Positions 22,117-63,885 of a stretch of DNA of 64,000 nucleotides are shown here, one piece after another. Each line of letters starts with the position of its first letter. Position 1 is the first letter of the stretch. Made by a program: the position numbers and the translations under genes. Under the pieces are notes generated by a model. The model ran no database searches, was not told where the DNA came from, and was given only the letters and a program-made list of their open reading frames with translations. The DNA lies in assembly GCF_988243305.1 (NCBI RefSeq), contig NZ_OZ547136.1; one strand, given 5' to 3'.

Positions 22117-22160
22117 ATAAACCACGCTACCGCCCCTGGCTATACAGCTACCAGAGCACT
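22117..22160 (-). promoter_or_regulatory. JUMPstart element with ops site upstream of the O-antigen operon
   Basis: plus-strand cacgctaccgcc at 22123-22134 is the reverse complement of the ops sequence GGCGGTAGCGTG; same motif context recurs upstream of wza. Confidence 0.8.
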
Positions 22161-22407
22161 GCGTGTGTGTCTACAATGTAACGAGCGTTTCATGCTCGCA
22201 ATAAACAAAAAACCAAAAGCTAAATTATCTTACTAATCAGCTCTGAAAACAAGGAAATGTGTAAAAAAAGTCCTATTGCTGACTTGTTATTATCCCGAAT
22301 ATTTATAAATCAATAATAGCAGGAAGACTCGCAACAAGTTACTTTGCCTGCTAATCTTCACAACTATTACAGTCTTTTCGCATCTGTTGCATCCGATTCG
22401 ATTTTCA

Positions 22408-23304
22408 TTATTCCCTTAACAGCTTCTCAATCCCTTTACGGAACTTCGCCCCTTCTTTTAGGTTACGCAGTCCATACTTCACAAACGCTTGCATATAACC
22501 CATTTTTTTACCGCAGTCGTAGCTGTCACCGGTCATCAGCATGGCATCAACAGACTGTTTTTTCGCCAGTTCGGCAATAGCATCAGTCAGTTGGATACGT
22601 CCCCATGCACCTGGCTGAGTGCGTTCCAGTTCCGGCCAAATATCGGCAGAAAGCACATAACGGCCCACGGCCATGATGTCTGAGTCCAGCGTCTGCGGCT
22701 GATCCGGTTTTTCGATAAATTCAACAATGCGGCTGACTTTACCTTCGCGATCCAGCGGTTCTTTGGTCTGGATGACGGAGTATTCAGAGAGGTCACCCGG
22801 CATACGTTTTGCCAGCACCTGGCTACGGCCCGTTTCATTGAAGCGTGCAATCATGGCAGCAAGGTTGTAGCGTAGCGGGTCGGCGCTGGCGTCGTCGATC
22901 ACAACGTCTGGCAGCACCACGACAAATGGATTGTCACCAATGGCGGGTCGTGCACACAAAATGGAATGACCTAAACCTAAAGGTTCGCCCTGACGCACGT
23001 TCATAATAGTCACGCCCGGCGGGCAGATAGATTGCACTTCCGCCAGTAGTTGACGCTTCACGCGCTGCTCAAGGAGAGATTCTAATTCATAAGAGGTGTC
23101 GAAGTGGTTTTCGACCGCGTTCTTGGACGCGTGAGTTACCAGGAGGATTTCTTTGATCCCTGCAGCCACAATCTCGTCAACAATGTACTGAATCATTGGC
23201 TTGTCGACGATCGGTAGCATCTCTTTGGGAATCGCCTTAGTGGCAGGCAACATATGCATCCCAAGACCCGCTACCGGTATAACTGCTTTTAAATTCGTCA
23301 TCAT
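22408..23304 (-). CDS. galF: UTP-glucose-1-phosphate uridylyltransferase-like regulatory subunit
   Basis: 298 aa ORF, nucleotidyltransferase N-terminus, conserved position upstream of O-antigen cluster. Confidence 0.9.
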
Positions 23305-23542: not shown

Positions 23543-24538
23543 TTACTCAGAAACAAACGTTATGTCGTCTTTTTTGGCATGAACGAATTCATACTGCAGA
23601 GTTCGATCCAGACCTTGCGACAGCGTATACGGTGCCACAAAACCTGAAGAATGCACTTTCGTTGCGTCAAACTGTGTTGTTGCGCAGAATTTTTTCACGC
23701 GCACTGAGCTGACAGCGTATTTTTTGCCCGTAATTTTGCTCAGGATATCAAAACAATATCCACCCAGCATTCCTAGTGGGTAAGGCAAGTGCATAGAAGG
23801 GATCTTTTTGTTCAGGCTTTGTTCAACTTCAGCAACCAACTGGTTCATGTTCAGGTCTGGCTTATCAACGTAGTTATAAACCTCATAACCTGCGGCAACA
23901 TTCTTCAGTTTGTACTTGATAAACTCAACAATGTTTCCAACATAAGCCATGGACTTATAGTTAGTTCCTGCACCCACCATCATAAACTTGCCGCCAGCGA
24001 TCTGTTTCAGCAAGTTATAGACGTTACCGCGGTTGCGTTCACCGAAGATAACGGTAGGACGGATGATGGTTAATGAACGTTCTGTTGGTGCTTTGTTATA
24101 CCATTCACGCAGCACTTCCTCTGCCTGCCACTTACTTTTGCCGTAGTGGTTGAAAGGGTCGTGTGGATGGTTTTCGTCAGGGTTATGTTTGTTCAAACCA
24201 TAAACAGCAACGGAACTGGTAAAGATGATATTTTTAACGCCATTTTTTTCCATGGCCGCCAGCACATTGCGGGTACCCTGAACGTTGACATCATAATAGA
24301 GAGAAGTAGGGCTGACGTCATCGCGGTGTTCCGCTGCCAGTAGTACAACAGTGTCAAAACCAACTAATGCCTGGTCGAGTGCCTGTTGATCGCGAACATC
24401 GCCAATCTGTGTGATTTCTGGATAAAAGTGGCTCTGCTGTTTGTCCAGGTTCTTGATATTAAAGTCAGCAATTGCCGTTTCAAGTAGTCGGGTTCCTACG
24501 AATCCGGAAGCTCCTATGAGCAAAACGTTATCGTTCAT
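23543..24538 (-). CDS. gne: UDP-N-acetylglucosamine 4-epimerase-like protein
   Basis: 331 aa ORF; N-terminal LLIGASGFVG Rossmann motif; lies between wcaM and galF as recalled for gne in some E. coli lineages. Confidence 0.75.
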   Translation of the reverse strand: MNDNVLLIGASGFVGTRLLETAIADFNIKNLDKQQSHFYPEITQIGDVRDQQALDQALVGFDTVVLLAAEHRDDVSPTSLYYDVNVQGTRNVLAAMEKNGVKNIIFTSSVAVYGLNKHNPDENHPHDPFNHYGKSKWQAEEVLREWYNKAPTERSLTIIRPTVIFGERNRGNVYNLLKQIAGGKFMMVGAGTNYKSMAYVGNIVEFIKYKLKNVAAGYEVYNYVDKPDLNMNQLVAEVEQSLNKKIPSMHLPYPLGMLGGYCFDILSKITGKKYAVSSVRVKKFCATTQFDATKVHSSGFVAPYTLSQGLDRTLQYEFVHAKKDDITFVSE

Positions 24539-28639: not shown

Positions 28640-28960
<321 letters not shown>

Positions 28961-33270: not shown

Positions 33271-33339
33271 GTCGTTACCCTTTTTCAGGCAATAGTTGGC
33301 CCTGACCGAAGCGGCCAATTTTGTTTTTGTCGTTATTTA

Positions 33340-33550
<211 letters not shown>

Positions 33551-46579: not shown

Positions 46580-47719
46580 TTACCAGTTATGAATGTCGCT
46601 GGCTGTATCCGTCATGTAACGGACACCGCTAATAGTTGGCAGCAACTGATTGATCAGACGGTTCCAGCGGGAAACCGGGGCGGTGGTGACATACACCACG
46701 TCATAAGGTTGCAGGCGGAATTCTGTCGCCATCACCAGCGACGTGGCATCGGACATATCCAGCTGGTAGATATTGGCAATCTTGCCGTTACGCCCACCCT
46801 CGCCTTTCAGCGGACGAATGACAAAGATGCCGCTGGCGTTGGAGGTGGTCATGTCGATGCCTTCAGCATTGCCCAGGGCTTCAGTCAGGGTCATGCCGCT
46901 AAAGTCCATTTTCAGGGTGCTCTGTTTTTTAACTTCACCCATCACAAATACTTTCAGATCATCATTACGCGGCACGTAGAGAATATCGCCGGGGTAAAGC
47001 AGTCGGTTCTGATTGAGGTCGCCGTTTTGCATCAGCGCCTGCAAAGAAATGCGTTCTTCACGACCATTGTGTGTTAGCACCACGTTGCGCCAGTCAGCGG
47101 TGTCGGTCAGACCACCTGCGGCGTTGATGGCATCGAGAATGGTCAGTGGTACGTTGGTGATGGCCTGTTGACCGGATTTATTCACCTGACCTGAGATATA
47201 CGCTTTTTGCGAGCGGAAGGCGGCGATATTAACGTCCACCTGCGGGTCAGCGATGTACGTCGCTAAGCGCCCGGTAATATCACTGCGGATTTCAGCGAGC
47301 GTTTTCCCCACCACGTGAACTTTGCCGATATACGGGTAGAACATGGTGCCGTCAGGCTGTACCCAGTTGCCGGTGTCGCTGGAGCTGCGGTACTGACCGG
47401 CTGGCGTGGTAAGTTCCGGGTGATCCCAGACGGTGACATTAAGAACGTCCCCCGGCCCGACGCGATACTGGTAATTCGCGATCTCGCTTTCCAGCGTCAT
47501 ATTGGGGCGCGCTACGTTGGGTCGTGGGCGTAATTGATCAATCAGGCGCGGGGTCAACGGATAAACATTCACCATTTTGTCGAGATCGAAATCAGCGTCC
47601 TGCTGTTTGATGACGTCTTTGCCCATCGTCGACATATTGCTGCCCGGAAGTACTGTGCAACCGCTTATCAAGGTTACTGACACCAATAATGGCATCAATT
47701 TCATTTTGGATTTCATCAT
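46580..47719 (-). CDS. wza: outer membrane polysaccharide export lipoprotein
   Basis: 379 aa ORF with lipoprotein signal (LISGC); first gene of colanic acid operon. Confidence 0.92.
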
Positions 47720-47892
47720 TGTTTATTTATCACTTTGGCAGAGTAATTATCCTGTGCACTATTAATAGCAATGTCGCCATGCACATTTACCTTGCAGTTA
47801 ATTGAATAAAAATTTAACTGGCATCAGTCCTAAAAAAATTGATTTCATCCGCAGGCTATTGACAGAATAATTCAGACTGGTCTTTCAGGCAT

Positions 47893-47935
47893 CCAGACAC
47901 GCTACCGCCCCTGGCTTTTTAGCTACCAATACACT
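47893..47935 (-). promoter_or_regulatory. JUMPstart element with ops site in the leader of the colanic acid operon
   Basis: plus-strand cacgctaccgcc at 47898-47909, reverse complement of GGCGGTAGCGTG, about 180 nt upstream of the wza start. Confidence 0.8.
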
Positions 47936-48377
47936 GATTTAGCTTAATTTTTAAAACCCTCTCAACATACAGTCGTTGATGAGAAAGGGTTATTGCGGAA
48001 ATTAACTTCCGAATATAAGGTGACATTATGGTAATTGAATATTGGCTCTCCAATAATGCAGGAGGAAGTGTTACAGCTAACGGAATAGCAGGCAAGGTAA
48101 CAATTCGGCAATTGGCTATTTTTAAGAATTATATTAAGTGTCATTCAACATGGTTTTTAGGAGTTTCTTTAGGTTGACAATATTTAATATAGTGTCTCCA
48201 CATGCGATATTTCTTAAATAATGTTTTATTATTACCACTTTTAATTCAGGGATAATGTGAGGTTATAAACCTCAAATAATATGAGATAAATAGTGCTGCA
48301 ACATTGCATTTTTGCCCCGATTTATCCATGATCGAATTGTGACATTTGTCATACAACGAATAGGTTTTGTACTTACT

Positions 48378-49961
48378 ATGGAATGGATTGCCGATCCGTC
48401 TATCTGGGCCGGGTTAATCACGCTGATTGTGATCGAACTGGTCCTCGGCATTGATAACCTGGTCTTTATTGCCATCCTCGCCGAAAAACTACCGCCGAAG
48501 CAGCGCGACCGCGCACGGGTTACCGGGCTGCTGCTGGCGATGTTAATGCGCCTGTTACTGCTGGCGTCAATCTCCTGGCTGGTCACCCTGACACAACCGC
48601 TATTCAGCTTTCGCTCGTTTACCTTTAGCGCCCGCGACTTAATCATGCTGTTTGGTGGTTTCTTCCTGCTGTTCAAAGCCACGATGGAGCTGAACGAACG
48701 GCTGGAAGGGAAAGACAGCAATAACCCCACGCAACGCAAAGGTGCGAAGTTCTGGGGGGTGGTGACACAAATTGTGGTACTGGACGCCATCTTCTCACTC
48801 GACTCGGTGATTACCGCCGTCGGGATGGTCGACCATTTACTGGTCATGATGGCCGCCGTCGTTATCGCTATTAGCCTGATGTTGATGGCCAGCAAGCCGT
48901 TAACGCAATTTGTTAACAGTCACCCGACGATCGTTATTCTCTGCTTAAGCTTCCTGTTGATGATTGGCTTTAGCCTGGTGGCAGAAGGTTTCGGCTTCGT
49001 CATTCCGAAAGGCTACCTGTACGCTGCTATTGGTTTCTCGGTGATGATCGAGGCGCTCAATCAGTTGGCTATCTTTAACCGGCGACGTTTTCTTTCCGCT
49101 AACCAGACACTGCGCCAGCGGACTACCGAAGCGGTAATGCGCCTGCTTAGCGGGCAAAAAGAAGATGCGGAACTGGACGCCGAAACCGCGTCCATGCTGG
49201 TGGATCATGGTAACCAGCAGATCTTTAATCCGCAGGAACGGCGGATGATTGAGCGGGTACTTAATCTTAACCAGCGTACTGTCAGCAGCATTATGACGTC
49301 GCGCCACGATATTGAGCATATCGATCTCAACGCGCCGGAAGAAGAAATCCGCCAGTTGCTGGAGCGAAATCAGCATACGCGGTTGGTGGTTACCGACGGT
49401 GATGACGCAGAAGATTTGCTCGGTGTTGTTCACGTTATCGACCTGCTACAACAGTCACTGCGCGGCGAACCGCTCAACCTGCGGGTGTTGATTCGCCAGC
49501 CGCTGGTGTTCCCGGAAACCTTGCCGTTGTTACCTGCTTTGGAGCAGTTCCGTAATGCCCGCACACACTTTGCTTTTGTGGTGGATGAGTTTGGCTCGGT
49601 GGAAGGGATTGTGACATTAAGTGACGTCACGGAAACTATTGCCGGTAACTTGCCGAACGAAGTGGAAGAGATCGACGCCCGCCATGATATTCAGAAAAAC
49701 GCCGACGGTTCCTGGACGGCGAATGGTCATATGCCACTGGAAGATCTGGTGCAATATGTGCCGCTACCGCTGGATGAGAAACGCGAATATCACACCATTG
49801 CCGGGCTGCTGATGGAATATTTGCAGCGTATTCCAAAACCTGGCGAAGAAGTTCAGGTGGGGGATTATTTGCTTAAAACGTTGCAGGTGGAAAGCCATCG
49901 CGTGCAGAAGGTGCAGATTATACCGCTGCGTAAGGATGGCGAGATGGAGTACGAGGTGTGA
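48378..49961 (+). CDS. yegH: inner membrane protein with TerC-family membrane domain and CBS / CorC-HlyC C-terminal domains
   Basis: ORF 48312-49961; start set at [10 protein letters not shown] (ATG at 48378) to give 527 aa; domain call from recollection and hydrophobic N-terminal half. Confidence 0.8.
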
Positions 49962-50179
49962 TGGTATCGCCATTTTACCCGATGCTGCGTAACGCCTTAT
50001 AACTTCAGCAATGAAGCGATGTCTGTGGTACATGGACATCACAGCGGGGGTGTGGGTCCGGGTTGCCAGGGTGGTGGAGATTGAGCCACCCTGGCACGTT
50101 CACCGGCTTGAGCGTTCCATAGTAGCGAGGAACATCAAGTGAACGGAACAGCCTTCGATCTTACATATTCAGAATATAA

Positions 50180-50245
50180 TGGTGCCGCCACGAACGCCTG
50201 ATGCGACGCTTTACGCGTCTTATCAGGCCTACAGGACAGGTCACC
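50180..50245. repeat. REP element between convergent yegH and asmA
   Basis: gcctgatgcgacgctttacgcgtcttatcaggcctacagg palindromic unit. Confidence 0.8.
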
Positions 50246-50252
50246 TGGTAAA

Positions 50253-52106
50253 CTACATCTTCTCCAGCAACTTCTTCACATCTTTGCCATTGCGGGAATC
50301 TTTATTCCGCTCGGCCCAGTCATTCAGGCGACGTTTCGCTTCGTCCTGTAGATGTTTGCGCAGCAGCTGGTCCACTTGCAGGCTGTAATTGAGTTGCTGC
50401 CAGTTGCCATAAACCCGCAGCGGTACTGGCGTTTCTTTGAGGAAATCAATCAGTTTGCTTTCTCCGTTCCATCCACCCACGACCCGAATATCAAACTGGG
50501 TGTCGCAGGTTTGCTCCGCCAGATTCAACGTACCAGCCCCGGAAAGCGCCAGCACAGGCGATTGACCTTGCATGTCGTTTAACGTCACGACGCCATCCTT
50601 CAACGTCAAATAGGTGGTAAAGCGGTCAAGACGCGTCACGTTATCGAAGTTTTCAGCGGCCTTCACATCACCACCATTACGTTCTACCGCTTGCTGAATC
50701 ATCTGCTGGAAGTTCATCCCTTCCATGCGTGTGTCGGTCATTTCGACATGTGCCTGTCCTTGCCAGTTGTGGCGGAATGCGTCGGCATCTATGTCAGCAC
50801 CGGAGAAATCACCAGCCAGTGACATCTTTCCGGTCAACGAAATCGGATAGTTAAACGCCTTCAGAATGGTGCCTATCTCAACGTTTTCCAGCCGTGGCTG
50901 GAAGTTTATCCGCGGATTTATTGATGTCGCGTCCAGCGTGCCCGGCAGTGAAACCTGTCCACCGTTAAGCTTGCCCTGCAGTTGAGTAATTTCCAGCAAA
51001 CCCGACTTGTTGGTCATTTGCGTGGCAACATCTGTAAAATTCATTCCGCGCCAGCGCACGTTACTGGCCTGCAACAAAATATCAGCCGTAAAGCCTTGCA
51101 GTCCCTGATAGGCCGGTTCATCAATACGCGAAGAAATGACCGGGCGCGGCAACGTTGATTGGCTCTGCCCCTGCTGCGCGGCACCGTTTTCACCGTTCGC
51201 TGTTTCATTAAGCGGGATGAGGTTGTCAAGATTCAGTTGCGGGAATTGCAGTCTCAGCTGCCATTCCGGTTTCTCTGTCAACGTGACCTGTGCTTGCCCG
51301 CTCAGCGTACTGTCATTGGCGGTCAAACTAATTTGGTTAAATGAAAGGCGTTTATGTGACTCCTGCCACTGGGCCTGGAAACTCCCCTGCCCCTGAATAC
51401 CTTGTTTTGGTAAATCTGCACCCTGCAACTGCCAGTTAATTTGTTCAATAGCCGCCGTTAAATCATGCGGATAATCAGAAGCATCTACCGTACCGTTAAG
51501 GGATATCGTGAGATCGCGCTGATCGCGATTAACCCGCCCGGAGAACTCAAATGAGCCACGATGTTGGGGATCTTGTTCCATTTGCAGACGGATATTGCGG
51601 ATTGTCACCTGCTCGTCATCTTCATGCTGGAACACCAGCACGCTGTCCGCCACCTTAAGACTGGATATATCAAACGACCATCCGCGATCGTCTGACAGAT
51701 CCGGCAAGGTATTGTCGCGCGGTGCAACCGGAGCGTCTTCACTGCGCACCGCTTCCGTCTGCGGCGTCAGTTGGATCACTGCCCCTTTTAGCATCACCTG
51801 CTTAACGCTCAGTTGATGACTCAGTAGTGGTAAAAGCGCCACGTCCAGACGCATGTTGTCGGCGCGAACCAGTGGCTGGCTCGCGCCCTGGGCGGTGAGA
51901 GACATTCGCCCGGAGAGGATACTAAGCTGCGGCCAGACGTGCCAACGCAGTGGCCCGTCGAGCTGCAATTGATAACCGCTACGTGCAGCAACTTGCTTGA
52001 CCATATAGTCGCGGAAATCATTCGGATTCACCAGCAACACTAACGCAGATAACCCGGCCACCAGCACGACCAGGAGTATCATCAGCGTCGTCAGAAATCG
52101 TCTCAT
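50253..52106 (-). CDS. asmA: AsmA, outer membrane assembly / lipid transport family protein
   Basis: 617 aa ORF with N-terminal TM anchor, conserved position upstream of dcd. Confidence 0.88.
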   Translation of the reverse strand: MRRFLTTLMILLVVLVAGLSALVLLVNPNDFRDYMVKQVAARSGYQLQLDGPLRWHVWPQLSILSGRMSLTAQGASQPLVRADNMRLDVALLPLLSHQLSVKQVMLKGAVIQLTPQTEAVRSEDAPVAPRDNTLPDLSDDRGWSFDISSLKVADSVLVFQHEDDEQVTIRNIRLQMEQDPQHRGSFEFSGRVNRDQRDLTISLNGTVDASDYPHDLTAAIEQINWQLQGADLPKQGIQGQGSFQAQWQESHKRLSFNQISLTANDSTLSGQAQVTLTEKPEWQLRLQFPQLNLDNLIPLNETANGENGAAQQGQSQSTLPRPVISSRIDEPAYQGLQGFTADILLQASNVRWRGMNFTDVATQMTNKSGLLEITQLQGKLNGGQVSLPGTLDATSINPRINFQPRLENVEIGTILKAFNYPISLTGKMSLAGDFSGADIDADAFRHNWQGQAHVEMTDTRMEGMNFQQMIQQAVERNGGDVKAAENFDNVTRLDRFTTYLTLKDGVVTLNDMQGQSPVLALSGAGTLNLAEQTCDTQFDIRVVGGWNGESKLIDFLKETPVPLRVYGNWQQLNYSLQVDQLLRKHLQDEAKRRLNDWAERNKDSRNGKDVKKLLEKM

Positions 52107-63561: not shown

Positions 63562-63739
63562 AAGAAATCCTTTCTTAGAGAATTATTGAGGTCCGGTATC
63601 ATACCGATTGCAATAATGAAATAAGAGCAAACGAAGAAACTTTCAGAATTAGGCCCGGCGGCGCAGAAAATTTTGCTATTCGCCTCGCAAGAACGGAGAG
63701 CCGTCGATTGACACTAAGGGCGGAGTGACATAATTTCAG

Positions 63740-63885
63740 GAGTGAGGGTTAGGGAGAGGTTTCTCCCTCCCCCTGGTGTTCTTAGTAAGCCTGGAAGCTA
63801 ATCACTAAGAGTATCTCCAGTATGATGACGTGCTTCATCATAACCCTTTCCTTATTAAAAGCCCTCTTCTCCGGGAGAGGGTTTC
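63740..63885 (+). ncRNA. Sib-family antisense RNA (antitoxin of Ibs), boundaries approximate
   Basis: plus-strand region fully overlapping the minus-strand Ibs ORF, ending at a hairpin plus T-tract; locus position after yegL matches the recalled sib/ibs location; 5' end not determinable from sequence. Confidence 0.5.
63782..63841 (-). CDS. Ibs-family type I toxin, 19 aa hydrophobic peptide
   Basis: hand translation of the minus strand gives MMKHVIILEILLVISFQAY followed by a stop; not in the ORF track because it is below the length cutoff. Confidence 0.65.
   Translation of the reverse strand: MMKHVIILEILLVISFQAY

Follow-up and report, generated by a model that had tools for sequence, protein, structure and literature searches.

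A probable two-stage regulatory region upstream of the Escherichia coli colanic acid operon, with a JUMPstart/ops leader and putative tandem Rcs boxes

RcsAB sites have been mapped by biochemical means at the amsG promoter of Erwinia amylovora and the cpsA promoter of P. stewartii, and for Escherichia coli K-12 the cps (wza) promoter was reportedly mapped by Stout in 1996, while the wza RcsAB box is said to have been defined and mutated by Wehland and Bernhard in 2000. Transcription of the colanic acid operon involves JUMPstart-RfaH antitermination and is activated by RcsA/RcsB (PMC9976346). In the uropathogenic strain CFT073, H-NS covers the wza promoter and a sigma-70 peak is seen there solely in a delta-hns delta-stpA background, in which RfaH also gives a ChIP signal at the wza ops that is absent in delta-rfaH (PMC9765446). 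The same study finds wza silent in rich medium, with an RNA polymerase signal below background in wild-type CFT073, and places the ops start 190 nt from the start of wza and 71 nt from that of wzx (PMC9765446).

On the side of initiation, the published RcsAB consensus is TaAGaatatTCctA, in which T1, A3, G4, T10 and C11 are the most conserved positions; its right half, wwTTCykA, is attributed to RcsB and usually faces the promoter. The box of the RcsB homodimer is TN(G/A)GAN4TC(T/C)NA (TNRGAN4TCYNA below). At the rcsA promoter RcsAB is said to bind two boxes, located ~170 bp upstream of the start, and the region of the first of them (box1) overlaps TGAATTGCCATTAATATA, a reported RcsA/B binding site. 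As for the wza promoter, a genome-wide table of Salmonella RcsB boxes contains no strict site there, the reviews and related papers give the consensus with wza coordinates absent, and a text search of the literature with each of the candidate box sequences described below returned nothing relevant.

The stretch of DNA analysed here (the window) comprises 64,000 nt of an E. coli chromosome (contig NZ_OZ547136.1 of RefSeq assembly GCF_988243305.1). Open reading frames and RefSeq annotation delimit the locus under study as follows.

46580-47719, minus strand: wza, with which the colanic acid operon wza-wcaM opens (wza-wzb-wzc-wcaA...wcaM)
47720-48377: yegH-wza intergenic region, an AT-rich divergent spacer of 658 bp
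48378, plus strand: ATG of yegH (TerC family), divergent from wza

With wza reaching up to 47719 and yegH opening at 48378, 658 bp lie between the two; an earlier note on this DNA had correctly seen that the two genes diverge but had put the gap at about 590 bp. Its GC content is 34.5%, against 48% for the whole window, and falls to 28% at 48100-48299. Of 5426 complete E. coli genomes, 4818 carry the segment 47720-48377, at 95-99.8% identity. For comparison across genera, 79 loci with the divergent yegH/wza arrangement were collected from Escherichia, Citrobacter, Salmonella, Enterobacter, Lelliottia, Kosakonia, Phytobacter, Atlantibacter, Franconibacter, Siccibacter, Trabulsiella, Cedecea, Buttiauxella and others, and their spacers were aligned. 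Alignment with a K-12-like strain shows 12 substitutions and zero indels, none of the substitutions falling in the boxes, promoter hexamers or JUMPstart described below. The MG1655 spacer is likewise 658 bp long, hence any window coordinate plus 2,089,524 gives the NC_000913.3 coordinate. In that numbering the elements described below correspond to 2,137,581-2,137,584 (predicted start), 2,137,647-2,137,660 (box A), 2,137,682-2,137,695 (box B), 2,137,727-2,137,740 (box C) and 2,137,422-2,137,433 (ops). This cps/wza control region is already known, and the window equals K-12 at every functional element; we read it as very probably a two-stage regulatory region of the wza-wcaM operon, acting at initiation and again at elongation.

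Upstream of the predicted promoter, three putative Rcs boxes and one further conserved motif were found, with centres counted from the predicted transcription start.

48123-48136, minus strand: box A (promoter-proximal, the site picked out by the earlier note), TAATATAATTCTTA followed by AAAA, reading TAAGAATTATATTA on the plus strand; centre ~-70
48158-48171, minus strand: box B (middle), TAAAGAAACTCCTA followed by AAAA, 10/14 to the consensus; centre ~-105
48173-48179, minus strand: TTGTCAA, invariant, on the upstream side of box B at a constant 17 bp from its TC
48203-48216, minus strand: box C (distal), TAAGAAATATCGCA; centre ~-150

The spacer was scanned for Rcs boxes, as the earlier note had proposed. 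Three sites reach at least 10/14 to TaAGaatatTCctA against 1.3 expected (p ~0.14), a count within chance in an AT-rich spacer, and the exact RcsB box TNRGAN4TCYNA occurs 0 times in the 658 bp, in agreement with the Salmonella table. Sites with up to one mismatch to TNRGAN4TCYNA are enriched, with 10 strand-hits against 1.95 +/- 1.85, a number that none of 300 shuffles reached. Boxes A and C each have one mismatch to the RcsB box and box B has two. All three are in the same orientation, and A and B carry invariant TC(T/C)TAAAA halves fitting wwTTCykA.

Of the three boxes, A shows the strongest conservation. Its sequence TAAGAATTATATTA (48123-48136, plus strand) matches TaAGaatatTCctA at 10/14 positions, as does its reverse complement, and neither strand has the full set of the five top consensus bases (the minus strand has T in place of G4, the plus strand A in place of C11). 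One W position aside, its positions are 90-100% conserved in 77 orthologous spacers, and it stands one mismatch from the RcsB box in 69 of these 77 loci. The promoter-facing half, AATTCTTA, matches wwTTCykA 8/8 in E. coli and with 0-1 mismatch in all 77 orthologues. In 74 of the 75 loci with the promoter motif, the TC of box A keeps one of two distances to the -35 element, 32 bp in 63 loci and 31 bp in 11, and neither the intervening DNA nor the flanks of box A are conserved. A fixed spacing across unconserved DNA looks like the pattern of an activator site under a helical-phase constraint.

In box B, which lies 34-35 bp from box A, T10, C11 and A14 never vary, and conservation at positions 12-13 is ~95%; its right half (TCCTA-type) fits wwTTCykA with 0-1 mismatch in 79/79 loci and the left half is shifted or degenerate. 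Box C alone among the 14-mers of the spacer agrees with TaAGaatatTCctA at each of the six capitals; its majority form in other genera is TAGGAAATATCGCA, 56/78 loci are within one mismatch of TNRGAN4TCYNA, and conservation per position is 73-95%, apart from position 6 (A/T) at ~50%, with A or G at position 3, as the RcsB box allows.

It is highly likely, in our judgement, that an Rcs operator is contained within 48120-48220, and box A itself is probably a genuine, if still putative, Rcs site; we stop at these levels because the G4 or C11 base is missing from box A and 10/14 matches are not rare in AT-rich DNA. The loose RcsAB resemblance that the earlier note had reported around 48120-48140 is thus a real and conserved element, with fixed spacing and an RcsB half-site, but it falls short of the consensus at G4/C11, and what had been taken for a single site is one of three tandem boxes.

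Comparison with rcsA bears on how box A should be read. It shares a 12-nt core, TTAATATAATTC, with the MG1655 rcsA promoter, within the box1 region, an identity that is statistically marginal (14 of 200 shuffles reached at least 12 nt). The second rcsA box (box2), TAAGGATTATCCGA followed by AAAA, lies 33 bp downstream of box1 and in sequence resembles box C more than box A; the ~170 bp by which the rcsA boxes precede the start is likewise nearer to the position of box C. These likenesses, together with the six capital consensus positions held by box C, the lack of G4 or C11 in box A and the chance occurrence of matches of such quality in AT-rich DNA, could mean that only box B and/or box C make up the published, functional RcsAB operator. 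Box A would then owe its conservation to some other role, as an A-tract/UP-like element, as a nucleation site for H-NS or as the target of another factor bound at ~-70. We consider this possible but somewhat unlikely, given that box A is the one most strongly conserved and held at 31-32 bp from the -35, that its promoter-facing half is a perfect wwTTCykA and that its 12 nt in common with rcsA belong to a region reported to be bound by RcsAB.

The promoter is predicted from a motif that is nearly invariant across genera in the 79 spacers: CCTTGCCTG, 9-10 variable nt, then TTAGCTG(C/T)AACA(A/C)T. The elements predicted from it are listed here.

48090-48095, minus strand: predicted -35 element TTGCCT, in the conserved CCTTGCCTG, with a fixed 17-nt spacer to the -10
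48067-48075, minus strand: predicted extended -10 element, TGT + AACACT, in the conserved TTAGCTG(C/T)AACA
48057-48060, minus strand: predicted transcription start (near 48059), placed from the -10 position

In most other genera the extended -10 is TGC + AACAAT. The two hexamers stand a fixed distance apart, whereas the interval between the -35 and ops ranges over 171-209 across loci. We infer from this conserved block a sigma-70 promoter whose hexamers and start are predictions; by the position of the -10, transcription would begin near 48059, giving a leader of ~340 nt (47720 to ~48059) with ops at ~+151 to +162. The long leader described in the earlier note accordingly holds for the spacer, which is 658 bp, but the part of it predicted to be transcribed is only about half of that.

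A different active promoter is improbable. One candidate is TGGAGA-16-CATAAT (48052-48025, start near 48018), the sole site returned by a generic promoter scan; the segment 48052-48020 is not conserved across genera, and the single promoter-like match is fewer than shuffles give (mean 3.8). The other is the sigma-E promoter of RegulonDB: a paper citing that database lists one sigma-70 and one sigma-E promoter and makes the RcsAB-regulated one sigma-E dependent (PMC9764084), which is why the region was scanned for sigma-E elements. No GGAACTT-N15-17-TCTGA-like match was found on the wza strand, and the colanic acid sigma-E predictions were not validated by Rhodius et al.; we therefore rejected the sigma-E promoter and retain the conserved sigma-70 block as the predicted start of the operon.

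In some E. coli genomes PGAP annotates a hypothetical ORF of 49 aa (48028-48177, plus strand; WP_162829205.1), which runs antisense to the wza promoter and across the Rcs boxes. It is probably spurious, because 63 of the 79 orthologous spacers have no comparable ORF. On the yegH side of the spacer, a conserved block adjoins the yegH start at 48300-48353 (plus strand). It contains a near-consensus CRP-type palindrome, TGTGACATTTGTCATA (48338-48353), with its centre ~32 bp before the annotated yegH ATG, and possible promoter hexamers TTGCAT and CATGAT.

Downstream of the predicted start, the elongation stage is marked by the following elements, the second JUMPstart belonging to the O-antigen locus of the same window.

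47898-47909, minus strand: ops, GGCGGTAGCGTG, exact; RfaH loading site on the non-template strand, ~+151 to +162 from the predicted start
47898-47936, minus strand: JUMPstart with the hairpin UGGUA...GCCAG; Rfam RF01707, 57.3 bits, E = 1.6e-10, full-length model match
22123-22161, minus strand: second JUMPstart/ops; RF01707, 52.2 bits, between galF (22408-23304) and the first O-antigen gene

The 12-nt ops consensus GGCGGTAGnnTG is satisfied exactly by GGCGGTAGCGTG at 47898-47909 on the minus strand, just where the earlier note had placed it, and a second exact copy lies at 22123-22134 (minus strand). Allowing one mismatch, the window holds three ops sites against 0.29 expected, and 0 of 100 shuffles reached three. 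The RF01707 model (gathering score 35) matches both JUMPstarts, whose 39 nt are identical over GCCAGGGGCGGTAGCGTG, TGGTAGCT and CAGTG, so that the near-identity of context between the wza and O-antigen elements noticed earlier is borne out. The pairs of the JUMPstart hairpin are kept in 57-58 of 58 aligned orthologous leaders. The wza ops is on the coding strand of the gene, 178 nt upstream (ops end to ATG) and downstream of the conserved promoter, which, with the start position predicted, puts it in the untranslated leader of a long operon; counted from the ops start to the gene the distance is 190 nt, matching that given for CFT073 (PMC9765446).

It is scarcely credible that the JUMPstart/ops at wza duplicates the O-antigen element without being functional: the silence of wza in rich medium and the below-background polymerase signal of wild-type CFT073 would suit it, but RfaH is found by ChIP at the wza ops when H-NS and StpA are absent and not in delta-rfaH, and in the orthologous yegH-wza spacers ops is exact in 63/79 and has one mismatch in 13/79, together 76/79 across genera.

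Three loci, from Pseudescherichia vulneris, 'Escherichia sp. ESNIH1' and an Enterobacteriaceae MAG (L036, L037 and L040), have a spacer of ~478 bp without JUMPstart/ops, while keeping the core promoter motif and the start-proximal leader blocks 47810-47836 and 47720-47757. These loci seem to have lost the RfaH loading site naturally.

Between ops and wza the leader is also conserved, in four blocks.

47856-47872, 47810-47836, 47793-47801 and 47720-47757 (within 47720-47872), minus strand: proximal leader blocks, 80-100% conserved across genera

Their sequences are AATTATTCTGTCAATAG, TTTTTAGGACTGATGCCAGTTAAAT, TTAACTGCA and the 38 nt before the ATG, and the distance from the ops end to the ATG is 176-180 nt in 63/76 loci. 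RNAalifold on 58 leaders found no conserved structure in the proximal leader; what it returned was the JUMPstart hairpin, an ops-overlapping stem and a short start-codon stem, with covariation almost nil. Beyond JUMPstart, an Rfam E-value search gave noise only (mir-320, 18.7 bits). We speculate that the expression of the capsule export gene might be subject to a further, undescribed control after initiation, encoded in these 178 nt. The proposal is rather doubtful; candidates for it may be a site bound by a protein or a small RNA, or an RcsB site of the intragenic kind.

An upstream ORF, ATGCCAGTT...TAA (start 47822), was considered and rejected because its ATG is replaced by ATA or ATT in many genera. 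The sequence TAGGACTGATGCCA at 47819-47832, in a conserved leader block, is one mismatch from TNRGAN4TCYNA; it is situated past the predicted start, a location from which RcsB usually represses. In Citrobacter amalonaticus S646 (L046) the spacer extends to 938 bp and ops-to-ATG to 296 nt, against ~178.

Elsewhere in the window, a 331-aa ORF lies between galF and wcaM (23543-24538, minus strand) and has no counterpart there in the closest complete genome, NZ_CP027447.1. That genome carries a RelE/ParE toxin and HTH antitoxin pair between yegH and asmA; the pair is absent from the window, where the corresponding interval, 49962-50253, is ~290 bp only. Other Rfam matches above gathering are an algC RNA motif in the intergenic DNA that immediately precedes cpsG (33275-33324, minus strand), naRNA4 (REP/BIME-type), with three repeats within the colanic acid gene cluster, and a Sib antitoxin RNA close to where the window ends.

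33275-33324 (minus strand), 28718-28885 (plus strand), 33411-33481 (plus strand) and 63708-63856 (plus strand): the algC, naRNA4 and Sib matches together

Taken together with the published work, in which the Rcs and RfaH steps are established, the arrangement suggests the following course. H-NS would silence a weak sigma-70 promoter set in an island of 28-35% GC. Envelope stress would lead to phosphorylation of RcsB, and RcsA, the partner of RcsB~P, would be stabilised when Lon is limiting; RcsB~P with RcsA would then occupy the tandem boxes A, B and C and activate the weak extended -10 promoter, the RcsB-like half (TCYTA, then an A-tract in A and B) facing it. Binding of RcsAB or RcsB to box A is a prediction from the sequence. 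Polymerase would transcribe the ~340-nt leader and, ~150 nt downstream of the start, expose ops on the non-template strand and load RfaH, after which it would resist termination and H-NS roadblocks across an operon of more than 20 kb. Read in this way the locus is a textbook case of two-layer capsule control, by Rcs/H-NS at initiation and by RfaH/ops at elongation, and the comparative map (three boxes, extended -10, leader blocks and K-12 coordinates) may help colanic acid engineering and the design of Rcs stress reporters.

Set against the described systems, the window shows no functional difference from the E. coli K-12 cps (wza) promoter region, which is the same locus with the same 658-bp spacer. 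The E. coli rcsA promoter resembles it in having tandem boxes about three helical turns apart (33 bp in rcsA, 34-35 bp from B to A in wza), and the two have in common the TTAATATAATTC core and a TCC(G/T)AAAA-type half. They differ in that the order of the two box types is reversed, and in that the rcsA boxes are ~170 bp upstream of the start whereas boxes A and B of wza are at ~-70 and ~-105 and wza has a third box, C. With the JUMPstart/ops-RfaH leaders of the O-antigen (galF-rfb), waaQ, hly and kps operons the wza leader shares the same 39-nt JUMPstart architecture, and the 12-nt ops of the O-antigen copy in the window is identical to that of wza. Unlike those leaders, wza is silent at initiation unless Rcs is active or H-NS is removed, and its ops stands far from the first gene, with 178 nt between the ops end and the ATG.
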